Source: Atractiella rhizophila
Taxonomy: Eukaryota
NCBI GenBank assembly: GCA_021432655.1
Contig: MU271333.1
Location: 44,607 to 64,606 of the forward strand
Length of the DNA stretch: 20,000 bases
Direction: 5' to 3'
Shown: one piece after another, positions 54 to 20,000 of the stretch
Layout of the letters: each line of letters opens with the position of its first letter
Position numbering within the stretch: the stretch's first letter is position 1
Made by a program: the position numbers and the translations under genes
The notes under the pieces: generated by a model
The model's input: the letters and a program-made list of their open reading frames with translations, nothing else
The model's database searches: none
What the model was told of the DNA's origin: nothing

Positions 54-1179
54 TCAAGCATTGATAGCAATTCCTCCGTCCTTTTCCCACCTCGTCAAAA
101 TCTCCTCCGCCCTCTCTTCAACCCATCTGAACGAACCCCACCTACCCCATCCCTCCATGAACCTGTACCAATCGACCACCATAAGCTCCCAATGAAACTT
201 GAGCCTTTCTTGTTTGTACTCGATATTAGGGTTCTTCTCCAGCAGGATGGAGAGGTAATAATCGAGTAAGTTGTCTACAGACGAAAGAACTGACAAGGAG
301 GCAGTCGTACAGAGAAAGTAGACAAGGTCGCGGGTCGGAAGAGAGAGACCAACATATTGGAAGTCGTACATGGCGCAGGTTGGACTGGGGTCGGATGAGG
401 GAGAGAAAAGGATGTTTTCGCCTTTTGGATCGCCGTGGACTAGCGTTCCATAGTTCTTGCTTTCTTCCTTGATGATTTTATCGAGCTGCGTGATATTATC
501 ATGTGAAGAAGCGAAGAGTATTAGAGAAGTAACGGACTGGTTCTACCCATTTGAGTAAGAGTTTATTACGGACGCCTTTCAGCTCGCTTTTCCTTGTGTC
601 TAAATACCAATATCCACCTTGCGTCCACACTCCTCCAGTTTGTTCACCTCCGTTGTTGTATTCAAGGGGCGGCCTAATCTTCGCGGCCTCCTTCGCTGGG
701 TTACTCCAAAAAGTGGCATGGAAGCAAGCCAACCATCTCAACGCCACCAGCGTTTGTTCCAGATCAAACTCGTACAGACTCTCAGGGAAAGAGACACTCA
801 AATCCTCCATCAGCAACTCGATGTTTCCTTCCTTAGACCGTGTGGAAGAATAACACTTTGCGATATTGCAATCACCAGCCTCGGCGTGGAGAGATAATTC
901 GGGAGCAAGGTGAGCGTAGAACCAGCTCTCGACTTCGTACGAGAGAAGTTTTCGCAAGTGGCTCTCGTCCGCCTTCTTTCCCTTGGCAGGAGGGGGAGAC
1001 ACCCGTTTGAGAATTAGACTGAGAGAAGGCGAGAATACAAGACGAGCGATCGATCCATAATTTGACCAGAGTGAGGATAAGACATAGGTCTGTGTCAATT
1101 TATAGGTCGAGAGAGAGGGAATAGTAGACGTTATGGATTGAATAGCAGGATCGGGTGAGCGGCCAAATTTTGAACTCAT
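54..1179 (-). CDS. APH/choline kinase/EcKinase-like phosphotransferase, 357 aa; exons 1179-538 and 485-54
   Basis: Intron 537-486 (GTCCGT...CAG, 52 nt) joins ORF 499-1179 in frame to ORF 54-371. The join gives WVEP|LDKIIKEESKNYGTLVHGDPKGENILF...MYDFQYVG, i.e. the HGDxxxxN catalytic loop plus the DFQ metal-binding motif. The N-lobe carries SYEVE and LLMEDL. Confidence 0.88.
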
Positions 1180-1962
1180 GGTCTACAACAGGAGAATCAG
1201 TCAAGATAAAGAGTATGTCAACGGAGTAATGTATTGTAAGTCGAGTTGAATGCCAATTTAAAGTCAGAAAATTGAAGAGCTGTCGCGTAAAATCACATCC
1301 CAATTGTTACGAACCCGAGCAAGTCATTGAGGCCAGAAACTCGAAAACTGAACTCTCAGAGTCGAATGCATCAAGACGTCGAGACAATAAGTCCTCAAAC
1401 ATTGTGCTTTCATGCACTGGTAAAACCGCATACTTGAGAGCTTCTGTTTCGACATAAACATCTAAGGTCGCCTGCGGGTGCTTGGGCTGGAGCGAATATC
1501 AAGTTCCAGACACAGACTGTGATTTGAACTCTGACGCTATATTGACATCCGTGATATACGAAATCTTGGAGGCGACGTTGTGATTAGAAGGACAATAAGC
1601 CCCAGTATAGTATGCTTATGAGATAATGGAGTTGGCACCTACCAGTTCCCTCTCCGCGTCTCTGATTGCGACCACTGGCGATACCGCGCGACAGGTTACG
1701 CAGAGAAGGGAGGAGCGTATTACAGCGTAATCATAATCTAGTCACGCGGTTGAGTGCTGGGAGTCTTATTATAATTCTTTGTAAATGTCTTTTACGCAAA
1801 GGAATCACATTGGACAAAATTTAGACAAGCAACAAGCACATCTCACCGAAACGACGAAAAGCACTTCCTTGAACACAAAGGAGAAGATAAAACTTCGGAC
1901 AATCCGGAACGATTAATGTAAATGTGGACATTGAAACCAGATATGTGAACAAGAATGACCGC

Positions 1963-3820: not shown

Positions 3821-4265
3821 TCAAAACACGCTATTGAGAATGTGCACGCATTCTAGTTGAACCTGTTGGATCTCAGGAATTAAACAGCCAGTTTGAGAGC
3901 TCGAGGAGTTAGCAAGTCTCATGGTTGGAGACATGTGTGAGGTCAGGGGTACAGGGACTTGATTGAAAGAAGTTTAACTTTATTTCAATCGAGGCACATC
4001 TTTGTGTGGTGGTTGGAAGGTGGAAGAGTCTGGAGGAGCTGCAAAACTGACTGAGGCCTGAGGATTAACGGTGGCAGCGTTTCTCCCAGTCCTAGAGGCA
4101 CGGTATTCACCAGTTATGGCTCTTGGATGCACTTTTACTGTGCAGTGGAAAGCGAAGTTTCTATTCGCAGTCTCAAATTATAACGACTTGCTTGCTTCAA
4201 CTGTCTGTTGCGCGCCGAAATACCAAAAAGTTGCGAATAGTTCTTAGATCATGAGCTACACTTGC

Positions 4266-5805
4266 TCAACTTTCTCCTCCATACCACACTTCTATTTCTT
4301 CTTCGATTCCCCACCGTTTCCCTTCTTCCCGAAACTTTTGCACGAATGGCTCCATATACGCTGGTTGCAACGAAAACGAGATTTCTACTCCTTTTCCCCA
4401 CGCACCGCCATGTAAAGGAGCATTTCGTTGGAACATCTTAATATACCGCGGAGATTCAGTGATGGTATGGAGGAAGTGGGACTGAGCTTTCTCTAAACCG
4501 AAGGAAACATCTGAATAGTCGAACCTTCATCATGTCAGCGGGATCGTACTATCAAACGAGGCCTCGACTCACTTGATCGACGAGTTTACAGCAAGCCAGC
4601 CATCCCTCGGGGTGAAATTCATGTCTTCCCCCTTCACTGCTGCATCTAACCATTGCTCAGCCAACACCTTGAAATGGTCTCTCGTAAACTCGTCCCTTCT
4701 CATCTCCACCCACATAAATCTCAAAGCCCTTACAATATCTATCATTGTACTTTCTTTTCCCCAGTGCGCAGACGGCCACAGAAGGCAGTTTATTGCTGCG
4801 TTTGAAGCGGTCTGGATAATGGTGCCACGACCGTTATAGCATGTTGCCGCATGTATTATTCGCTGCTCGGATGTGGAAAGAGCGATTGCAAGAAGAGCAG
4901 TGAGGCAATCTTGAAGACTGAAATGCAAGGAGGGGTCATTGATGGCTTTGCCGACGGAAGATTTGAGTGAAGACAGCTGTGCATCCAAGAGAAAGAGAGA
5001 GATTATTCGAGTTGGAGGTGGAGGCGGAGGATTGCGGCCAGTGAGCATGGGGAGATTCTCCAGGAATTTTGATTCTGCTGAAGAACTGAGCTGTGGAATC
5101 GAGGAAAGTGGAAGAAGCCGGTTGTAAGACGGAGGCGAAGGCAGGGATCCCGTCGAGTAAGCGGTGGAGAAACAGGACCAGAACATGACCATGTTTGCTC
5201 CATCCCCTGTCACAAGCTTAGCAATTTTGTATACCAAAAGCCGGAGTACACCTACCAACGACATGGGATGAGGTCGCAGCCAGCAAGGTCCAACCCTTGT
5301 CAAGAAAATGAGTGATGCGCATTTTCATGAGCGCTTCTTCTCCTCTACCCCTCCGGATACCTTTCATATTCAGCGTTGGTGTCCATTTCCAGGTGGTCTG
5401 AATCACCCGATCATCCGGAATCTCATATTGCGCATCACCGTATAGGTGAACCTCCTCCACTTCGAGAGGTTGCAGAGGGTCGAGGGAGATGCGCCATCCG
5501 CCGCTTTCTCCTTCTTCGTTCGTTGAAGGATCGCGAAATCGACCACAGTATAACGGGAAGTAAGAAAGTGTCTTTGAAAGAGCAAGAAGCAATCTCTCGG
5601 TGTCGAGTTTAGCGCGCAGGAGGTATCCTGTCTCGACCTAATGCCCAAGTTCAACTCTCATCTTTGAGTTCGAAACAGTCGTAAAAGAATTACGAACCGA
5701 AAAATGGAACATGAGATCAGCTTCGTGCAATGGGAAGCTTTTGCTATCAAGCGTCACTACATCTGGTGCTGGCAATACTTGATGCACTGTTGTCTTAGTT
5801 GTCAT
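4266..5805 (-). CDS. BAHD/Transferase-family CoA-dependent acyltransferase, copy A, 460 aa; exons 5805-5698, 5637-5256, 5206-4573, 4524-4266
   Basis: Spliced product has the N-terminal LLLALSKTLSYFPLYCGRF motif, catalytic HxxxD (SHVVG|DGAN, split by intron 5255-5207), and C-terminal FDYSDVSFG where the DFGWG motif normally lies. Introns are 60, 49 and 48 nt and the frame is intact. Confidence 0.88.
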
Positions 5806-8101: not shown

Positions 8102-9677
8102 ATGGCAGGAAACACGAAAGTCAAGGTGCATCACGTCTTGCCAACGTCGCAAGCAGTGGCACAAGGATCCAAGAGCTTCCCGCTACATGAGCTTGACTTG
8201 ATGATCCAGTTCTCAGTTCGTGCCCTGCTCAATCACCGTGTCAACTGCAGGCTGAGCACAAAGAATTAGGTCGAAACAGGCTACCTTCTCCGAGCTCAGC
8301 TCGACACGGACAGATTGCTTTCTGCCCTGTCAGAGACACTTTCTCACTTTCCGTTATACTGCGGTCGGTTTCACGTTCCTTCGACGGATGAAGAAGGCCA
8401 AAGCGAAAGTTGGCGTATTGCGATGGATCCTCTACATCCAATAGAGGTGGAAGAAGTGCACCTTGATGGGGACGCGCAATCAGAGATTCCAGACGATAGA
8501 GTTATACAGTCTGATTGGAAATGGACCAGGATGTTAGACATGAAGGCTGTCCGAGCGGGCAGAGGGGAGGAAGCACTCCTCAGAATGCGCATCACGCATA
8601 TCGTCGAGAAGGGGTGGACTTTGTTGGCTGCCAGCTCAGCACACATCGTTGGTGAGTGACTGTGATCTCGCAACGGCCTGGAAATAGTGTTAATCCGTAT
8701 AACAGGCGATGGAGCAAACATGGTCATGTTCTGGTCCTGCTTCTCCTCTGCCTACTCAACGGGATCCATCCCTTCGCCGCCATCCTACACACGTCCCATT
8801 CCTCTATCCTCGATCCCATCCCTCACTTCTTCAGAGGAATCAAATATCCTCGCAGACCTTCCTATGCTCACGGGCCGGAATCCTCCCCCTCCACCACCAA
8901 CTCAGATCATCTCAGTCTTTCTCTCGAATTCACAGTTGGAGTCATTCAAATCCTCCATTGGACAAGCCATCAACGATCCCTCTTTGCATTTCAGCATCCA
9001 AGATTGCCTCACGGCTCTTCATTCAATCGCATTGTCTACATCTGAGCACCAAATAACGCGTGCTGCGGCAGTTTACAATGCCCGTGCCACCGTACTACAG
9101 CCCGACTCCAACGCAGCCATTAATTGCCTGCTTTGGCCCACTGCACAATGGAGAGAAGGGAGCTCAATGATAGATGTTGTAAAGGCTCTGAGAGCTATGT
9201 GGGTGAAAATGAGGGGAGAACGGTTCATAAGGGATCACTACAAGGTTTTAGCTGAGCAATGGTTGGATGCAGCTCTAAAGGGTGAGGATGTCGATTTTAC
9301 GCCACAGCACGGATGGATGTCAGTCAACTCATCCATCAAGTAAGTTAAACACTTCGTGATTACACTGGCGCCTAGTTGATGATTAATTCTATAGGTTCGA
9401 CTATTCGAGTGTCTCCTTCGGATTGGATAAGGTTCAGTCTCACTTCCTTCACACAAACAGCAGAGCTCCACGCTATGTCAAAATGTTCAAAAGAAATCCT
9501 CCCATCGACGGCAGTGGGTGGAAGCAAGGTGTTGAAATAACGTTTTCGCTCCAAGTGCCGTATATCGAATGCTTTCTCCAGACTTTTCGAAAAGAAGGAG
9601 AGCGATGGGGAATTGAAGGTGATATAGAGGTGTGGAAAGGAGAAGAAAGCAAGATAAACGTAGCCAATGAAGCTTGA
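8102..9677 (+). CDS. BAHD/Transferase-family CoA-dependent acyltransferase, copy B, 470 aa; exons 8102-8215, 8270-8651, 8706-9339, 9395-9677
   Basis: Paralog of 4266-5805 with LSETLSHFPLYCGRF, AHIVG|DGAN (HxxxD) and FDYSSVSFG. Same three intron positions and identical internal exon lengths (382 and 634 nt). Confidence 0.88.
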
Positions 9678-10273: not shown

Positions 10274-11986
10274 TCAATGTGTGATAGGGATTACTGAAAA
10301 GAACCCACCAAACTTTATCCCACGATCTGCCAGCGCATTCCTTAGCCGGATGACGCTCTCGCTTTCTCGCCTCCAGACTCCTGATGGCCCATACACCGTT
10401 AACGTCTTCAAACAAGGCATGATAGCCTCAGTTGCCTCTTCGAACGTCATTGATATTGTGTCTAGAAAGGTGTCGGTGTCGCTAACAGGCTTTCCACACC
10501 ATGAATACTCGCTGAGATCAATGACCAAATGCTCCGTCCTCGACGTGGTTGATTTAAGAATATCGTACATCTCCGGCTCATACCATGTTGCGCTGTCGCT
10601 CAACCGCAATTTGAGCTCCGGAAAGTGAGTAAGCTGATTCGTGACAGAACAGACGATCTTTGTGATAGTGCTGGTGGGGGAAGGGAAGACAACACCTAGA
10701 TCAAAAATGTGAGGTATCAATTGTCTATTCACAAGTTGTTCAATGGCATCTCGACATTTCCGCGCCGTCGCAGGTGAGTCCTCCCCAGCGTTTGTTTTCA
10801 GCACCAGAGATCTGAGAGGTGTCGACGGGAGGAATGATAGGAAGAACTCGTCAACGAAGCTACAATGCCAAAGTGTGACTTCCTGAAGGTGTTCTAGTGG
10901 GTGGTATCCTTTTGCCAATTCGGTCCCAAACGACATGCTTATTAAGTGTAACTTTCGCAATTCTAGAGATTTGGAAATGAGAGGAAACATCTTGAACAAT
11001 CGGCATTTGTCGTTCATATTGTGTTTGCCCTCGCTGAAATCAAACATGAAGGTTTTTAATCGCGGAAGGTGTCCAAAAGGAACCATCAGCCGCTGCTGCT
11101 GCACGCTTTCTGTGACTGTAACTCGTAAGTCGAGCAAAGCTTTTGCGAGCAAATTTGTCACGTCAGCGAGGCCCGACCAAGCTAACTCGTGCAGGCATTC
11201 GAGTCTCAAATGGGTGACGTGTAGAGAAGTAGCTTGAGCCGTGAACCTCGTGACAAAGTTAACCGGAGTGTTCTTTAGAGCCAAATAGAAATTGCGAAGT
11301 GTAGTTAAATCGGAGCCAATTGTTTCAATGATCTCGGAAGGAACGTCATTGTGCCCAACATATAGATAGCTGAGAGATGAAAACAATGCAGCCATTGGAA
11401 GATCGAAGCGCAAAGTTCCACGTAACCGCGCCACGTGAAGACTACCAGATGAACTACCGAGGTTTGGAAGAAGAGTAGAGAGGTAGAACGGCCGAAATCG
11501 TGAAGAGTTTGTCACAGAGAGATTTTGGAGAAAGGGTAGAGCTGGAAACCTGAACCTCGGGTGCTCGACGCCGATAACATCCCACCAGAGGAGAGAACGA
11601 AGGTTCGTGCATCGATCGATGACAGCTTGCCCAAATTCGAGAGGGAGGTCCTTTTGGTCGTTAGAATCTCCTAAAAAGCGGAGTGTCCAAACAGAACTTG
11701 CACCATTCTCATCCCTATCCAAAGCAGCCAAGCAAGCTTCCATCTTAGCCTCTCTCATTTCTGGATCCCTAGATCCTTGACAAACGGAGCGCAGATCAAT
11801 TACTCGCATAATCAATTGGTTCGATATCTCTTTCCATCTTCGACAAACGAGGGCAGTTGTGCAGTAAGATCTCCGGGGTAAAAAGCGATTCTTTCCCCAG
11901 AGCCAGAAGTTTTCTACTTCGTCGATCGAAACGAGAATTTTTCGTATAAGTTCCAAAGGCAAGATATCGTTCATTGATTTCGCCAT
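10274..11986 (-). CDS. F-box protein with probable LRR/RNI-like C-terminal region, ~570 aa, single exon
   Basis: Long open frame. From ATG 11986 it reads MAKSMNDILPLELIRKIL...ALVCRRWKEI (F-box), followed by repeated LxxLxL segments (NLRSLLW, FLQNLSV, SLSYLYV, RLKTFMF, HLQEVTL, CLKTLTV). Confidence 0.8.
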   Translation of the reverse strand: MAKSMNDILPLELIRKILVSIDEVENFWLWGKNRFLPRRSYCTTALVCRRWKEISNQLIMRVIDLRSVCQGSRDPEMREAKMEACLAALDRDENGASSVWTLRFLGDSNDQKDLPLEFGQAVIDRCTNLRSLLWWDVIGVEHPRFRFPALPFLQNLSVTNSSRFRPFYLSTLLPNLGSSSGSLHVARLRGTLRFDLPMAALFSSLSYLYVGHNDVPSEIIETIGSDLTTLRNFYLALKNTPVNFVTRFTAQATSLHVTHLRLECLHELAWSGLADVTNLLAKALLDLRVTVTESVQQQRLMVPFGHLPRLKTFMFDFSEGKHNMNDKCRLFKMFPLISKSLELRKLHLISMSFGTELAKGYHPLEHLQEVTLWHCSFVDEFFLSFLPSTPLRSLVLKTNAGEDSPATARKCRDAIEQLVNRQLIPHIFDLGVVFPSPTSTITKIVCSVTNQLTHFPELKLRLSDSATWYEPEMYDILKSTTSRTEHLVIDLSEYSWCGKPVSDTDTFLDTISMTFEEATEAIMPCLKTLTVYGPSGVWRRESESVIRLRNALADRGIKFGGFFSVIPITH

Positions 11987-12285
11987 TGTCTGAAGATTTG
12001 GTGAGCGTGTTGTCGCGTCTGTTAAACACTGGCAGCTTTTTGAGGCAAGGATTTTTCTCCTTGTTGCTTGATAAATAGGGTTCGGACTTTTGTGTTCAGA
12101 ACAAGGAACCATTGCTGTTCGGAGACCTTTGCTTGCCGCTTGATCTCGGACATGAAACAATTACATGGCACATATAAGCAATCCAACTTTCTTCAGTGCA
12201 TGGCAAGTAGTATACATTCATCGTGACCGCTATAGCAATTGAGAGCCAAGCAATCGTACCAGCCACAAAGGAATATGCATCTTGA

Positions 12286-14521
12286 TCATGCAAGGGCACC
12301 TTTGATTGAGTACAATTCAGCTTTAATATCTTTCACATTGAAAAGTAAACTCACCAAGAGGGTCCCAAGGCGGCAATTCAACGGCATCCTTGTTCTCCCA
12401 TACCCTTCTTAATTCTTTAGGCACAAAGCTCTTATGAGCCACAATCTGGTACACAAACTCGTCGAACCATCCATCCGTCTACCCATCAGGCGCAAGGGAT
12501 CAACATCTTATCTCAGCCGACAAGTGGTGAGAGAACAGACCATCATGAAATAACCTTTCTCTCCTGGCGTTGGACCCCAAGAGTTCTCAACCCTCCATCT
12601 GACAGGTCTTCCGTCTTTGTCGAGGTGAACGGCGGTGATCGTCATCGCGTGCGTCATGGCCGAATCGCCCATTTGGAGTCGTTCGGATTTGGTCATTCCT
12701 TTAGTGGTACCAAAGGCGTTGGATAGGTCGAATAACTACATACATCCACATTCTTGTTCATGTCAGTCGGTCAGCGAAGGCGATAGGCAGACCTTGTGGT
12801 CCATTAATCCAAGAGTGCGCTCAGAGGATTGCCCAACGTCGCACCCGAACCAGACTGTGGACCAGATGCAATGAGTCAGCTAGGAATTATAGAACTCGAT
12901 GGGAAGAACGGACCAGGCTGGTCGGCTTTAAGGAGGGCGATTGCGACCTGCTTCATCTTCTCCCTTCATGCAAAATTCAATATCCACCTTTTGACAGTAG
13001 GGTCAACTTACACTCCCGAGTTCACATAACTGGGGATCCCATCAGTAAGGTTAATCAAGAATGATAAAGGGAGATACGAACCTCACTCTTTCTCCATCCC
13101 ACACATTACCAAGATGTTTGACGGTATAGAGTTTCCCATACTCGTTCCTTGGATCGTCGATCAAAGAAAGCGAATCCTTAGCCGAGAAAAAGTCGCATTG
13201 CTCCTTATAAAACGACAACGGGGTCGCCTTGATCGAGTGAAACTTGCCATTCTTATCATAATACTCCCACGTGAACTCTTCCACCTTCTTCGGGCTTCCA
13301 CAGGTGATACAAAGGATGCGATAGACCTCGTCCATCTGCTCGCTCTTCCTCTTCCTCAACCCCTTCACCGCCAACGCCTTCGCTTCGGCGCACGAGAGAC
13401 CTTGAGTGGTGTAAGAGGAGAGGAAAGAGGCGTAGAGACGACGGAGCTCGAGGGTATATTCTCGCAGTTTGGTCGTGAGGAGAGAGTCGACCTTGGAGGA
13501 GTTGGAGGAGTTAAAAGACTCCGGATAGACGCTTTGGGGCACTAGACCGTATTTCTCGATCAGATTCGAGGCCATGTCCCATTGTCCACCATCTATTTCA
13601 GTAGATGCTTCAGATTCATCGAGAAGAGAAAGGCTCGAAACAAAGGACGAACCGTTCTCAGGTGCTGTGGATAGGAATTGGATCACTCGACTGTCAAGAG
13701 GCTCATCGACTAATTCAATCATTGTCTCGAGGTAGCTGTCGCCACGTTTACCCGTCAACAAGCTGAAGCTCAGAAGGATGAAAGGAGATAGAAGACGCAC
13801 TAGTTGCTCTTCTCAACATGGTCATAGAAGAACAGGTAGCTTCGTTCTTCTCGTCAGCACAGTGGTCTCGCGAGAACTAGAGAAAGAAACACCTTTGCGA
13901 GAGTTGGAAGTCGTCTATCTCAAAAAATCCATCAATTTTATTGGGAGAGGAAGAAGGGACGAAGAGACGAACCAAGGTTATATTTCTTCTTGAGCCCGAT
14001 TCTGATCACATTCGTTGTAGCAAAGAGCCAGCATCTGCCCGAGGACATTTGACTGGTGACTACATACACCAAAGACTTAATAATTGGTGGAGCAGAGGGA
14101 GACTGGGAGGGACGAACTCGGCGTTCCCTCCGTCGAAATCTTGGTGTTATAGATATGCAAATCCTCCGTCACTCTCTCTCTCCCGGCGAGTGCGATAGTC
14201 CAGTCTTGCTTCGACAGTAGCGTGCTGGAGAGCTGAAAGCGAGCCGAATTCTCACTACCCATTCGGCATCCCACAATCAGCACATAGCTTCGTCGAAGGG
14301 AGGTGGAAGACGAACAAGTTCTCCTGCCACTCTTTCAATCCGTCAAACGAGACATCAGCTGTCGCAGGTCCATACTTCCCCCTCTGGGAAGAGGAGGAAG
14401 AGGAAGATCCATTGGAGTCGCGGATCTGGAGCGAGCGAAGGAGGGACGTGGCCGTCTCGAGCTCCCTCTGCTTCTCGGACACTTGGTGTTCCTGGACTGG
14501 CTTCGAAGGTGTGGCTCCCAT
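12286..14521 (-). CDS. LAP3: Bleomycin hydrolase / cysteine aminopeptidase (peptidase C1B), 13 exons
   Basis: Spliced product has ITSQMSSGRCWLFA (catalytic Cys), DFQLSQSYLFFYDHVEKSNYYLE, DGGQWDM, VWFGCDV, SAMTHAM (His), WRVENSWG (Asn) and the family C-terminus PWDPLGALA*. Twelve GT-AG introns keep the frame, including micro-exons of 22, 18 and 14 nt. Confidence 0.95.
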
Positions 14522-14924
14522 GGTTATCGTGCTGCTTTCTTTGACTGGTGTGCGAAAGGAGGAGCTCAGAATCGGACCCTGAGGGTTATATAAGGGTTGC
14601 TGGAGGACTGCTCGGAGGAGGACCACACTGCTCGTTGGTCTCGCTTTAAGATGCAGGTGATAAGAATTTGAAATTGCTCCACAGGGTCACATGAGGATGT
14701 GGATTGCTTCCAGGTATTTGCTATTTCATTTCACCATGTATCCTCCCAGCCAAAGCATGTTCAGTCTATCCCTTTGCAACCGTAGGACTTCTCGTCAGTG
14801 TTGCTTGCTGGAATCCAAATGGGAGGATAGTTCGGCGTATCTCACCTTCCCCTCATGGAAGATTTGAAATATGCCAATGTTGTCCCCGGCGGCCCAAGAA
14901 TATCTGACGCTCATTTAGCATTGT

Positions 14925-17603
14925 ATGCTCACCTTCCCCTTCACCCTTCGCCCACTCCGCTCACACTACTCAGACTACGCACCCCTGCCCACCTCCCACG
15001 AAATGGCTGCCATGTCAGCCGAAGACTCCACAGGCAGCCACGCCTCCTCGACAGCCAAGATCGAACTGCAGCATCCCCCATCGCTACGGCGCGCACAGAG
15101 CCACTCGAGCATCTCCATAGGCTTCGCACCCACCGATCCTCACGCCAACAATCCTTATTATCCCTTGCTGCTGTGGGCACGCAAATTTGCGCCGTTCAGA
15201 GCAACCGAGAACTGGCTGCGCGGACCTTCTCCTTCCGTCGAGCTGCAAATCAAAAGGTGGCGCTTTACGGCGCCGTTGGAGGAGTTGGCGGATAGATTGG
15301 ATGTCGGTAGATATGTGGGCAAGTGGAAAAATACGGTGCTTGCGCTGTTTCTTGCCCTTTGGATCGTGGGATTCGCATTGTTGGTTAGAGAGAGTAGCTT
15401 CTATGGGGTGGACAAAGACCAGTTTGTGGATTGTACGAGCGCTTATTGGACGGGAAGGAATGCTGATGTGAGTCTCCCTTTGATTTGTTGATGCTGTGGT
15501 GCACTGGACTTCAAGAAGTCACCTTGAAATCCTCTTTAGAGCTAGTATTCATTCTAGCTTTCTAGAGGTATCAGGATGACTGGACACATATTACATGGTT
15601 ACCTAGAGCTTCAAGGGCAAGAAGCCTCAGGTATACCTCAGGTTGTTGCTATCCAGAACGCGCAGTATTGATGCTTTCTGCTTTCTTCAATTGATTCCCC
15701 AATTGCGATGAGTACTTTTGTACTGCGTCTGTTTTCCCAAATTTAGAAGCTGATATCCTACGTACACTTCTCTGATAGTGAAAAGAAGAGGGCGACTTTT
15801 TTGTTATGTCAACAGGAGTGGCAAAAATATGCAGTCAGTGTCAATTAGGCAACCTTCCGTTCTGCTTTTAGATTTGACATGCTAGAAATGCACTCGGGTC
15901 CTACCTGTCATGTCGGAACTGTGCCATTAGCACGCGAAAGATCTTTTTCGTGCGAAAAATACTGTAGACGTCTGGGCGGCAAAAGCCATCCAATTTTTTC
16001 CAACAGATACAGTGTTGTTCACCTGCACTACTTTGTGCCCGATCACCAATCACCTTCAGTATTGACACAGTTTACTGATTCTTTCGTCTAGTGCGCTCTA
16101 AATGGCGAAAATTGCACACCTTTCAACGATACGACCTTCCGCTTCCGATGTCCTGCCAACTGCGCAAGCGTCACACTGCTCAATCCCCGAATTGTGGGTT
16201 CGCAATCCGTGAATTACGTTCCCTTGCTGGTTGGCGGAGGAGACGAGCTGGGGACATACCGCGGAGACAGTTGGATTTGCCCTGCCGCATTGCAGAAGGG
16301 GCTTTTTAGTAACAGCAAGGGAGGGTGTGCGCGCGTCAACACCGTTGGAACGTTTCAACGATATGTTGGGTTCGAGGCACATGGACTCAAAAGCGTAGAT
16401 TTCGATACGCAGTTTCCGAGTAGTATTCGCTTCGATGGTACCAGTCAGAGAGGGTGCAAGGATCTGCGGGATGAGATTTTAGGGTAAGACTCCTGTCTGC
16501 ATCTGAATGATATAACTAAGCACTTGACAGTTTCGACGTCGCCCTCTCCGTCATCTTCTCTCTGGTCTTTCGTCCCCCACCTCGAGTCTTTTTCTGGGTC
16601 CTCGTTTGCCTAGGTTTCTGGCACATCTCTCTTGTCTCCGAACCATCAGCTTCTCCTCCATCGATATCCCGACCAATCGGTATCTTCCTCCCAACACTTT
16701 TCGTTGCTTACGCCATCGGTCGTTTTGCCTGGCGCTGGACCCTGCCTGCATTTGAGATTGTTCCCATCGAACGAACAATATGGTACCTCGGTGGCTTTTG
16801 GGTTGGTGTATTGCTGAATGTGACGACTGGTTGGATACCTATTGACCGTCTCACCCCGCACGATATTAAACAACGACCCGGAGGGCTCGTGGCAGTCATC
16901 ATCTTGTCGATAGTTGGTGCATTCTTGGTTGGCAATCAGGTTTGGTTTATCAGGAAGACGGGGTGGCTAATTACATACCTCAAATACTACTGCCTTGGAA
17001 TTCTCGTCCTGGGCATCTTTGCCACATTGCCAAATCTCCAGTTCAGATTTCATCACTACTTTGCTGGAATCGTCCTCTCCCCCGGAACCGCATTCAAAAC
17101 GCGTGTATCTGCCCTACTCCAAGCATTTCTTCTCGGAATGTTTCTGAATGGGGTGGCGAGGTGGTCAGTCGGAATTTTCACTTTCTTTCTGCTGCTCCTT
17201 CTGACTGATATCGATGTATAGGGACTACGACGCCATCTTCCAAACTCCCGACGAGCTTCGAGGCGACGCTACCTTTGGAACTGACGTGCCCTCGTTCGCT
17301 ACGAACGACACGAATTTCCAACCTAACCAGCGCGTCATTTCGTGGCCATCAATACCTTCCGACCTCACCTCTTCGTGGAGCGGCCATTCGCTTCTTGTCG
17401 ACGACGTCCTGCGATACACTGGCGCTGCACTAAATTTCTCCCTAGATGCGTTGTCGGACGGCTTTGTCCTCGACTTCTCTCTCCCTCATTATCTCCGATT
17501 AGCATACGCAGACAACGATGGCAATCCCGGAGACTTCACCACTGCTGCCACTGCTTTTGTGAGCAATGGGACATGGATCGATCCCTTGCCGGGTTCGACT
17601 TGA
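14925..17603 (+). CDS. LCCL-domain multi-pass membrane protein (fungal type); exons ~14925-15467, 16092-16483, 16531-17163, 17222-17603; start uncertain (ATG 14925 or 15003)
   Basis: The splice gives CTSAYWTGRNAD|CALNGENCTPF...FRCPANC...LNPRIVG...YRGDSWICPAA (LCCL core). Downstream are many TM segments with the GFWHISL, IPIDRL, RFHHY and GVARWDYDAIFQT motifs that I recognise from fungal LCCL membrane proteins. Confidence 0.88.
15486..16067 (+). ncRNA. Putative structured intronic RNA of unknown class inside LCCL gene intron 15468-16091
   Basis: Terminal helix 15486-15496/16057-16067 (11 bp, 3 G-U), a 13-bp helix 15738-15750/15864-15876 (2 G-U), and about 6 further stem-loops found by eye. 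No known ncRNA motif recognised. Confidence 0.45.
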
Positions 17604-18181
17604 TTTGTTCCATTCAGTTCCTCCTTTGAGTAGACATTTGGATGCTTTCGTTTCATTTCATTTTCGGATGGATTGTATGTGGCAAGGACTGTGGTTGTGC
17701 ATTGTTGTATCATCAAAACTCACATTTCATACCCGATACTGTAATCGATTCTAGATTCACTTACCCTCATTTTCTCTTCCCTCCAGGGGTCAAGCATCTT
17801 CAAGCAACACTCGTACAATCACTCCACTCGGAGTCCATTCATTCCAATACCCTACGACACACGACCGCGACACCGCAACTACTTGATGAAGACTGGGATG
17901 AAGAACAAGGATGAAAGGAAGGCTCAAACAAAGGACCAACCAACCAGCATCTGGATTTGATTGAACATATGTAGCAAAGAAATCAAAGGGGGGAGGGGTC
18001 ACATTCGAACATATTGCACTGCTCGGGAATTGGGAGTGGGGAGTCGAAGGATGGAAAAACACAGACGTGGATCACGGACAAGGCTTTTGAGATGGATCAA
18101 ATGAGTAGAGCGAGATGAAGGGAGAGAGAGTATATGTTAAGGACCGTGTTTCTTGTTTCTCTGCACAGGATGCAAGTTGCA

Positions 18182-20000
18182 TCATCGGACACTCTCTGGT
18201 CCCATGTTCCGGTTCTGGAACGTGAAACCTGAGGAAGCAGACACATCAACCTTCCAACAACTGAATGAAGAAATTGGTAAGATGAACATACCTTCAAACT
18301 GTGCCTGTACGCTCTCGCTCAAATGACTGGGTTCAACCACACTATCAACTGGCGCTTCGGCGGTAAACTCTTCATCGAACTGTACCGAACAACAAACCAG
18401 TCAGCTTCTTCTCTACAAAAGGGACAATGAGGCAGTATGCGGTGGAGTTACGCACATTAGAAGTATCAGCAGCGCTCTCCACGCTCGGCTTGAACGGCGG
18501 CTGGATCTTCTTCGTGCTCAAAAGTGCCCAATCCAAATGATTCTTGAAGAACGGATGGTTCTTTATATCCTCAGCACCACGATTTCCCAACCTATTGCAC
18601 GTGTGAGGAAGAGTCGAAAGAGCCTCAATAGAAGAAACGAACCTCTGTGACGGTTCTCTCGTGAGTAAGCCGGTGAGCACGGAGCGAGCTTCAGCTCCCA
18701 TGTCGTCAGGGAAAATCAACGGATTCTGTGATCACAAATATGAGTCCCAATACGCTTGCACTATCTTCTAGAGTTGGTAGACGGGAGTACGGACCTGCAG
18801 AATCTTCTTGTACATAGTTGGCACGTCTTCGTCATAGTAAGGTGGTAATCCCGTCAACATTTCGTACAACAAGACGCCGAGCGTCCACCAGTCCACACTC
18901 TTCGTGTATCCCTGACCCAGCAACAGTTCCGGCGCGAGATATTCAGGCGTTCCGCAGAAAGCTGATCATTATCAAAATGGCATGAGTGAGGATCCCAACA
19001 TGGAGTAGGGAGGACGAACTGTTAGTCGTCTCTTGATCCGTCATGTTCAGCTTGCACAGACCAAAATCGCAGAGGGAGATGTGTCCGACGTAATCGAGAA
19101 GGATATTTTCTGGTTTCAAATCCCTACGTTGCAGGATCAGCTGGGCGTTTCCACGCAACCGTATGGAAAAAGAGGAACTTACCGATAAACGACATTGAAG
19201 CCATGGAGACATTCAAGGGCACACAACAATTCGGCGGCGTAAAACCTGCTCCTCTCTTCACTGAACCTTCCCTCTCGTTGGAGGTGATGAAAGAGTTCTC
19301 CACCATTGACGAAGGCTAGGACGAGGTACAATTTATCTGGAGATTGGAAGGCGAATTTGAGAGGAGTGATGAATGGATTGTTGACCTTTGCGAGGACGCT
19401 CCTCTCGGCAAGCGTATGGGTGACTTCGGATCGATTGACGATGTGTGCTTTTTTGATCGTCTTGAGAGCATAAATCCTCCCCGTATCCGTCTTACGGACT
19501 TGCATGACTTTTCCAAAGCTCCCTTTTCCGATGACCCTCAACAAATCCAGATCTTCGATCCTCAAGCCCTGTTCAGTGGCCTTGAACGCAATCTGTAAAT
19601 GGAAGTGACCGCCTTGACCAGTCGAAGAGGTGCCTTCGAACCACTTGTCGATTACTTTCGGACCCAATGCGCCGGCGGGGAGTGTGGTGTTGAAGTCGGG
19701 TGTTATGGTGACGGATGAGAGAAAGACGTCGTCGCCCATGTCATTCCTTTGACCAGGAGGAGCGGAGGAGGTGCGTAGGTAGGCGGAGAGGGTGAGTTCA
19801 GAAGAGCGGGACACATCACTTTTTTTCCCAAGACCACAAGCAATCAATACACCCATCAATCAAAAGGCGTGGTAAGGATAAAAAAAGACGCACAAAATAG
19901 TTCGAAACATGTAAACCGGCTTATCCATCTCCCCTCCCAACGCATCGACGAGCACATCGTTCTTATCGAACTGAAGCACGACGTAAGGGAGCCACCAGCA
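18182..20000 (-). CDS. YPK1: AGC-family Ser/Thr kinase, Ypk1/Gad8 (SGK-like); 5' end lies beyond the window
   Basis: C2-like N-terminal segment ([12 protein letters not shown]), then [51 protein letters not shown] (activation loop), turn motif APVDSVV and hydrophobic motif FEGFTF. Seven introns in the window; TGA ends at 18182. Confidence 0.95.

Follow-up and report, generated by a model that had tools for sequence, protein, structure and literature searches.

Results

A 624-nt intron upstream of the LCCL domain is removed as one unit

A predicted LCCL-domain gene of Atractiella rhizophila is interrupted, just upstream of the domain, by 624 nt whose ends can pair around a series of hairpins. 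This layout raised the questions of whether the interruption is a single intron or several short introns and exons, and whether its predicted fold marks a hosted RNA, a splicing element, an inserted sequence or an intron that is merely long. The gene lies in the window (the whole 20,000-nt stretch of DNA that was analysed) and has the following parts.

15003..15467, + strand: exon 1 (LCCL-domain gene), 155 codons from the ATG at 15003 (open frame, homologue alignment and contig ends)
15468..16091, + strand: intron 1, 624 nt, phase 0, GTGAGT...TAG (contig skips and gap-free protein junction)
16075..16079, + strand: branch-point motif CTGAT, read off the sequence, with the branch A at 16078, 13 nt 5´ of the acceptor G
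16092..16483, + strand: exon 2, coding for the LCCL domain (Pfam PF03815, E 4.5e-17)
16484..16530, + strand: intron 2, 47 nt (skipped in X3 and X4 contigs; splice signals)
16531..17163, + strand: exon 3, membrane-spanning part (gene model)
17164..17221, + strand: intron 3, 58 nt (skipped in one X3 contig; splice signals)
17222..17603, + strand: exon 4, running to the stop codon TGA (gene model)

Joined in silico, the four exons encode 624 aa with no internal stops, and the spliced protein reads ...GRNAD/CALNG... across the junction of exons 1 and 2. Retention of intron 1, which is about ten times as long as the other introns of the gene (47 and 58 nt), would bring an in-frame stop after 7 codons. 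The intron is in phase 0 and sits directly 5´ of the point where the LCCL domain of this membrane protein has its first conserved cysteine. With exon 2 we found 434 homologues at E ≤ 1e-3; the spliced protein aligned with homologues over most of its length, and the step from residue 155 to residue 156 was gap-free in all 12 aligned.

Assembled contigs joined exon 2 to position 15467 in 4/4 public runs (X3, X4, X5 and X6), of which X5 alone is recorded as RNA, the types of the other three being guessed; the count covers the contigs of these four, with X1 and X2 (0.70 and 0.57 of sampled words) left out. The X3 and X4 contigs skipped exactly 624 nt, from GT to AG. The skip was scored as 630 nt in the X5 contig and 633 nt in the X6 contig, with 6 and 9 replaced letters, respectively, in the first codons of exon 2. 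The interior of intron 1 had zero cover in the X3-X6 contigs, a kind of data that cannot reveal a stable excised intron. As to several short introns separated by exons, the contigs show removal in a single step with no hidden exon. Together with the homologue alignment, they bear out the first-pass annotation, which had described one outsized 624-nt intron with the protein continuous across NAD/CALNG. Thus, 15468-16091 is a genuine intron, excised whole at GUGAGU ... CUGAU ... UAG. The branch-point consensus of fungal introns is CTRAY, and intron 1 shows the features of a U2-type intron: a GT donor, a branch motif near a YAG acceptor and precise removal.

The predicted fold of intron 1 appears modestly unusual

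We compared the folding energy of intron 1 with that of shuffled sequences on both strands. The sense strand gave z-scores of -3.60 (20 shuffles), -2.84 (150 shuffles, one of which folded as well) and -3.37 (20 shuffles), and the antisense strand gave -0.73, -1.50 and -1.56 in the matching tests; by this measure, the intron's sense RNA is predicted to be more stable than shuffled sequence, as had been anticipated. Set against all strand-tiles 624 nt long in the 20-kb window (62 in total), the sense strand of the intron came second, about 3 sd below the mean of the 60 background tiles (mean z +0.26, sd 1.06). A rival tile of the same size reached z -3.9 with 20 shuffles and -2.63 on another test, and the gap between sense and antisense z-scores was equalled or surpassed in 3 of 30 background tiles. 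These comparisons suggest a fold that is only modestly unusual. The rival tile is what might be expected if nothing other than length were special about intron 1, with the fold statistics a chance fluctuation and the helices picked post hoc; we regard this as unlikely, given that just 1/150 shuffles folded equally well.

Three internal structures were considered individually.

15517..15581, + strand: arm 1, an imperfect palindromic hairpin of 23 bp and 65 nt (z-score, window scan and deletion test)
15600..15633, + strand: arm 2, a short hairpin (stronger z-score on the antisense strand)
15738..15876, + strand: domain shut by a 13-bp helix, 15738-15750 with 15864-15876 (13/13 pairs)

Folded alone, arm 1 gave z -4.60 on the sense and -3.66 on the antisense strand, and arm 2 gave -2.80 and -4.13, values that are inflated because the windows were chosen by eye, a circumstance that also fits chance fluctuation. 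Against chance, a scan of 7972 windows of 71 nt across the 20 kb placed the energy of arm 1 third lowest, and its z of -5.4 was the best within the 15 lowest-energy windows. Without arm 1, the z-score of the intron was -1.8 (6/100 shuffles as good) and without arms 1 and 2 it was -1.42 (11/100), while the interior without the closing stem described below still scored -3.09 (0/100). The excess stability of intron 1 is therefore predicted to come mainly from arm 1. The folding of both arms on the antisense as well as the sense strand points to DNA-level inverted repeats.

The pairing of 15738-15750 with 15864-15876 proved to be as first described, 13/13 with 2 G-U pairs, and has a pair probability of 0.6. 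This helix is at chance level, however, because 135 of 300 shuffles contained runs of at least 13, a result that, like the generic end closure reported below, agrees with the chance reading. Several of the successive arms listed in the first-pass annotation reappeared in the minimum-energy fold (15517-15581, 15600-15633, 15933-15952 and 16025-16038), which also includes the 13-bp helix and the closing stem; the arm at 15661-15727 was seen only if folded alone, and in the global fold it is replaced by pairing of 15662-15669 with 15958-15965. The repeats inside intron 1 (direct repeats of 9-12 nt and inverted repeats of up to 17 nt) were taken as chance. It had also been argued that G-U pairs in the long helices point to selection on the sense RNA. 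That argument finds no support, with the 13-bp helix at chance, a strand asymmetry found in 3/30 tiles and arms that fold on both strands.

A closing stem joins the two ends of intron 1, and end closure is generic

The ends of the intron are predicted to be joined by a stem with two strands.

15486..15501, + strand: 5´ strand of the closing stem, 11 bp + 4 bp (pairing verified; pair probability)
16051..16067, + strand: 3´ strand of the closing stem, ending 10 nt 5´ of the branch A (pairing verified; pair probability)

Both proposed segments were verified, with 11/11 pairs between 15486-15496 and 16057-16067 (3 G-U) and 4/4 between 15498-15501 and 16051-16054. The sequence outside the helix, described at first as close to a normal intron length, counts 18 + 24 = 42 nt and not the approximately 41 nt first given. 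Pair probabilities for the stem were 0.94-1.0 for the intron alone; once 150 nt of flanking exon were added at either end, most were 0.87-0.88. Shuffled sequences gave an equal run length in 25/1000 cases and an equal duplex energy in 41/1000, so that the stem by itself is at best borderline beyond chance by these predictions.

We also evaluated the proposal that the stem hides the length of the intron from the spliceosome. Donor and branch point came to lie at a structural distance of 30, down from 610, when the splice signals were forced single-stranded. The same distance in 150 shuffles of the interior had a median of 31 and was as short or shorter in 71/150, so the closure is, in this model, generic for an RNA of such length and the proposal is not supported. 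When the intron is folded alone, donor positions +3 to +7 (15470-15474) pair with the branch region at 16077-16081 with a mean probability of 0.85; this pairing, if formed, would hinder rather than help splicing. That large RNAs generically have their two ends close together has been described before (Yoffe et al., 2010, PMC3017586). Intron 1 agrees with this in that its shuffled versions bring donor and branch point equally close (71/150), and differs in that its stem beats 96-97.5% of shuffles.

Stems of a related kind, termed zipper stems, are found in long introns of Saccharomyces cerevisiae, including RPS17B (Rogic et al., 2008, PMC2536676; Rangan et al., 2025, PMC12350175). As in yeast, the host intron is far longer than the short class, and the predicted stem links a segment shortly after the donor with one shortly before the branch point, so shortening the structural branch-point distance. 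A zipper is a helix of at least 6 bp between a donor-proximal and a branch-proximal segment, and the predicted stem here has 11 bp + 4 bp. Its donor offset of 18 nt also agrees with the yeast rules. However, these rules further place zippers 20 nt or more away from the branch A with a linker of 42-85 nt (PMC2536676, PMC12350175), whereas the stem of intron 1 lies 10 nt from the branch A with a linker of 28 nt, and merely its inner 5-6 bp fall inside the allowed zone. The host here, moreover, is a short-intron fungus and not a budding yeast, and the stem is predicted from sequence alone.

Searches for a hosted RNA or coding sequence in intron 1 are blank

The first-pass annotation had raised the possibility of a hosted noncoding RNA. 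Across the whole window, Rfam returned 0 matches at the gathering score, and near the intron it gave two chance-level matches alone (E 2.7 and 5.6). A tRNA scan found none. For snoRNA C/D boxes in the intron, the C-box candidates all carried 1 mismatch and terminal stems were at most 4 bp, leaving no convincing pair. These blanks in Rfam, tRNA and box C/D searches speak against the proposal. The two reading frames within intron 1 (80 aa and 61 aa) matched no Pfam family. No homologue of the 80-aa frame was found among proteins of 44-140 aa, a blank that is uninformative, its own sequence also being missing there.

If intron 1 carried a functional RNA, this might be an lncRNA or an excised intron that stays stable, a hairpin (arm 1) that gives rise to small RNAs, or a structural switch that regulates splicing of the gene. 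In favour of such a function, short repeated words allow alternative pairings: CAGTATTGA is present at 15663 and 16057, and its complement at 15958-15967 pairs with 16054-16063. The sense-strand z-scores (-2.8 to -3.6) and those of arm 1 (-4.6 to -5.4) point the same way. We nevertheless consider it highly doubtful in view of the blank Rfam, tRNA and box C/D searches, the folding of arms 1 and 2 on both strands, the undistinctive strand asymmetry (3/30 tiles) and the unremarkable remainder once arm 1 is removed (z -1.8).

Four distant relatives are intron-free at the intron 1 site

Orthologous introns were sought in metagenomes, where five distant loci were recovered at 43-59% identity, too far to align the intron. 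The four that cover the site (L001, L002, L003 and L005; 43-59% identical) all lack an intron at the intron 1 position. L001 lacks an intron at the intron 2 position as well, so intron positions turn over in the family anyway. A shared intron had been hinted at by homologue models that start near the LCCL domain. We rejected this hint: at least P0058 and P0022 have residues that align with the end of exon 1, so these are no evidence of a shared intron.

The intron-free site is among the observations expected if intron 1 were a copy, perhaps degenerate, of an intron-generating mobile sequence gained in the lineage, of the introner-like or the Hypoxylaceae "sister" type, with the hairpins and end pairing belonging to the element. 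The length of 624 nt next to neighbours of 47 and 58 nt, a predicted structure stabler than shuffles, the canonical splice signals and the palindromic hairpins all fit this origin. It is weakened by the search for a second copy, which found none in the rest of the window (19.4 kb) or among the five metagenome loci (every hit at E > 1), and by the distance of the relatives compared, which are merely 43-59% identical and, as L001 illustrates for intron 2, differ in intron positions. We judge a mobile origin possible though not probable; more broadly, intron 1 appears lineage-restricted and is possibly insertion-derived.

The primary report of introner-like elements (ILEs) is said to be that of van der Burgt et al. 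in 2012. ILEs of Dothideomycetes are stably folded introns, longer than regular ones, with canonical splice signals (Collemare et al., 2013, PMC3609843). Length, structure and splice signals are ILE traits that intron 1 shares, at 624 nt and z -2.84 to -3.6, together with a site that is intron-free in distant relatives. By definition, ILEs exist in near-identical copies numbering tens to hundreds per genome, in unrelated genes, whereas intron 1 is single within the window. The symmetrical sister (stw)introns of Hypoxylaceae are multicopy and have terminal inverted repeats that span 45-55 nt (Fekete et al., 2021, PMC8469720). Intron 1 is likewise fungal with ends able to pair, and the sister introns integrate without flanking duplications; the end pairing of intron 1, unlike theirs, spans 11 + 4 bp with 3 G-U pairs required, and at the DNA level it is no inverted repeat.

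Introners derived from DNA transposons are recognised by terminal inverted repeats together with a duplicated target site where intron and exon meet. We rejected this class for intron 1, which has no Watson-Crick terminal inverted repeat and border direct repeats of at most 4 nt. Watson-Crick complementarity of one end zone to the other reached 8 nt at most, in a run pairing 15535-15542 with exon 2 bases ending at 16102, away from the termini.

Discussion

On balance, we lean towards intron 1 being an ordinary U2-type spliceosomal intron, merely long, that carries palindromic hairpins and a zipper-like end stem, with generic closure and no hosted RNA gene. Its extra stability would derive mostly from two hairpins, both short and palindromic, that lie in the first quarter of the intron and are most simply taken as relics of the sequence that lengthened the intron, and the closing stem (15486-15501 with 16051-16067) would contribute further stability. 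This stem probably forms, and some 30 nt would then separate donor and branch point, a shortened distance that would aid a spliceosome adapted to 50-nt introns, as yeast zipper stems do. The end closure itself would be a generic trait of RNAs of such size and no special device, and a separate hosted RNA gene would not be needed.

The sense-strand outlier, the over-stability of arm 1 and the closing stem (top 2.5-4%) could jointly reflect selection on RNA structure. That the 65-nt hairpin and closing stem are a selected RNA, either a self-propagating introner-like element or a splicing enhancer for the 624-nt intron, seems to us quite unlikely on these predictions; if true, the former would place introner-like elements in a fungal lineage not known to harbour them, and the latter would be a dedicated enhancer serving an intron-definition spliceosome.

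The analysis mostly counsels caution: for any RNA of 600 nt, folding programs would be expected to return a closed fold that has several arms and paired ends. Being generic for RNAs of this length, such folds therefore cannot alone identify an intronic RNA gene. The locus may still serve as a reasonable test case for two further questions: whether zipper-like stems, studied so far in budding yeast, are relevant to fungi with introns of about 50 nt, and whether long, hairpin-bearing, lineage-restricted introns may be a trace of past intron-generating elements.

A single 624-nt intron in the LCCL-domain gene

The LCCL-domain gene is modelled with four exons:

15003-15467, + strand, exon 1
15468-16091, + strand, intron 1 (624 nt), GTGAGT start, TAG end
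16092-16483, + strand, exon 2, LCCL domain (Pfam PF03815, E 4.5e-17)
16484-16530, + strand, intron 2 (47 nt)
16531-17163, + strand, exon 3
17164-17221, + strand, intron 3 (58 nt)
17222-17603, + strand, exon 4

Intron 1 carries the branch motif CTGAT at 16075-16079, with the acceptor G 13 nt beyond the branch A. The spliced four-exon model is 624 aa long, has no internal stops, and can be aligned across most of its length with the 434 homologues found using exon 2 alone as query (E <= 1e-3; top identity 58%). Since this model is intact and the protein is gapless in a MAFFT alignment with 12 homologues at the junction, where ...GRNAD meets CALNG..., no exon is hidden within the 624 nt. The first two exon 2 residues are CA in the window; of the 12 homologues in the alignment, 11 have CG there.

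Assembled contigs of four public sequencing runs (X3-X6) were mapped to 14900-17700; such contigs give no measure of splicing efficiency and cannot reveal a stable excised intron. A contig linking 15467 with exon 2 was present in all four runs. The skip is exactly 624 nt, with GT..AG ends, in X3 and X4, and is scored as 630 nt in X5 (six replaced letters) and 633 nt in X6 (nine replaced letters); the latter two are the same junction, with differing first codons of exon 2 (within 16092-16100). A record as RNA exists for X5 only, the kinds of X3, X4 and X6 being guesses. The 47-nt intron is also skipped in X3 and X4, and the 58-nt intron in X3, so these runs behave as cDNA; of the 24 contigs in X3, 14 match the window at 99% or more. 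Together with the gapless protein junction, the contigs in 4/4 runs bear out the first-pass annotation of a single outsized intron, with 624 nt removed as a unit.

Excess predicted stability of the sense strand

Three helices noted earlier are present as written: the two segments of the closing stem (15486-15501 with 16051-16067; 11/11 pairs including 3 G-U, and 4/4) and a 13-bp helix (15738-15750 with 15864-15876; 13/13, 2 G-U). All three are held by both the minimum-energy fold and the centroid, the 13-bp helix at a pair probability of 0.6. A proposed arm at 15661-15727 forms solely as an isolated piece; the global fold pairs 15662-15669 with 15958-15965.

The predicted fold was more stable than shuffled controls, with sense-strand z of -3.60 (20 shuffles), -2.84 (150 shuffles, 1 as good) and -3.37 (tiling, 20 shuffles), and antisense values of -0.73, -1.50 and -1.56. 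For the tiling, the window was divided into 31 segments of 624 nt, which were folded on both strands with 20 shuffles apiece, and the 60 background values had a mean of +0.26 (sd 1.06). Given these sense-strand scores and its second place among 62 tiles, the intron is genuinely over-structured for its locus without being unique, 4236-4859(+) alone being lower. Pure chance behind the fold statistics is distinctly unlikely. The 13-bp helix is at chance level, as runs of at least 13 occurred anywhere in 135/300 dinucleotide shuffles.

Removal of arm 1 (15514-15584; the hairpin itself is 15517-15581) raised z to -1.8 (6/100 shuffles as good), and removal of arm 2 (15600-15633) as well gave -1.42 (11/100); the interior without the closing stem kept -3.09 (0/100). 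On the sense strand z is -4.60 for arm 1 and -2.80 for arm 2, and on the antisense strand -3.66 and -4.13; the other arms range from -3.02 up to +1.20. G-U pairs had been taken as a sign of selection on the sense RNA; this did not hold, as arms 1 and 2 fold on both strands and a strand difference equal to the intron's or larger was seen in 3/30 background tiles. Arm 1 is remarkable despite the strand result: its energy is the third lowest among 7972 windows of 71 nt at just 39% G+C, and its z of -5.4 is the best among the 15 lowest-energy windows. The excess stability probably derives from two palindromic hairpins, arms 1 and 2, that would be DNA-level inverted repeats.

Tile 4236-4859(+) (z -3.9 in the tiling, -2.63 on repeat) overlaps one arm of an inverted duplication. 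Segments 4249-5642 and 8265-9670, ~1.4 kb each, are 70-75% complementary. The complementarity falls into three blocks of 644, 394 and 278 nt, and the innermost arms are 2.6 kb apart; the two segments look like diverged paralogous genes in inverted orientation, and four long frames from them matched no Pfam family. Frames 499-1182(-), 10274-12160(-), 13051-13812(-) and 19179-19859(-), matching Pfam EcKL kinase-like, F-box-like, Peptidase_C1_2 (bleomycin-hydrolase type) and protein kinase domains, are ordinary fungal gene content.

Predicted closure of the intron ends

Pair probabilities in the closing stem were 0.94-1.0 with the intron folded alone; when 150 nt of exon was included on either side they fell to 0.87-0.88 (outermost pair 0.5). 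Runs of at least 11 linking the initial 50 nt to the final 50 nt occurred in 25/1000 shuffles, and 41/1000 reached the duplex energy of -25.1 kcal/mol (shuffles -16.5 +/- 4.6), making the stem borderline against chance before correcting for the free choice of helix. With the first 8 nt (donor) and everything from 16072 on kept single-stranded, the donor-to-branch-A graph distance was 30, against a median of 31 in 150 interior shuffles (5-95%: 19-46). The suggestion that the fold hides the intron's length from the spliceosome loses its footing here, closure being as short (<=30) in 71/150 shuffles, in agreement with the general finding of Yoffe et al. (PMC3017586) that large RNAs have their two ends close together.

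In the folding model the closing stem probably forms and may act like the yeast zipper stem. We say "works like" rather than calling it one, since only 10 nt separate its end from the branch A and the remaining linker is 28 nt. In the intron-alone fold, donor positions +3 to +7 (GAGUC, 15470-15474) pair, at a mean probability of 0.85, with the GAUUC at 16077-16081 that spans the branch A. This pairing could be a by-product of the two splice consensus sequences; if formed, it would hinder splicing, a further reason against over-reading the model.

Nature of intron 1 and its site in relatives

The first-pass annotation had read the fold as a possible hosted ncRNA. Across the whole window nothing reached the Rfam gathering score, and near the intron there were only two chance-level matches (E 2.7 and 5.6); a tRNA scan found none, and no box C without mismatch was present, terminal stems being at most 4 bp. 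Two intron reading frames matched no Pfam family, and the 80-aa frame had no homologue among 44-140-aa proteins, a collection that also lacks that frame's own sequence. A hosted or regulatory RNA in intron 1 is, on these searches, very unlikely. The annotation's observation was confirmed and its interpretation supported in part.

A degenerate introner-like element is a possible but unlikely source. Such elements are described in PMC3609843 as longer than regular introns, stable in predicted structure and degenerating with time, traits that the intron fits; however, multicopy occurrence is their defining trait, and a search for sequences resembling the intron in the remaining 19.4 kb of the window and in the metagenome loci gave only hits with E > 1. 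Direct repeats spanning the intron borders did not exceed 4 nt, and the intron ends carry no Watson-Crick terminal inverted repeat. We lean towards an ordinary long spliceosomal intron, whose palindromic hairpins would probably be relics of inserted or expanded sequence.

When metagenomes were scanned with exon 2 as query, five loci of 43-59% identity were found. All four covering the junction (L001, L002, L003 and L005) are uninterrupted there; L004 stops short. The missing intron 1 in these distant loci is weak evidence that it may have been gained recently. L001 is also uninterrupted at the position of intron 2, and elsewhere in L001 and L005 the aligned segments are separated by short gaps; the family therefore seems to gain and lose introns at different sites.
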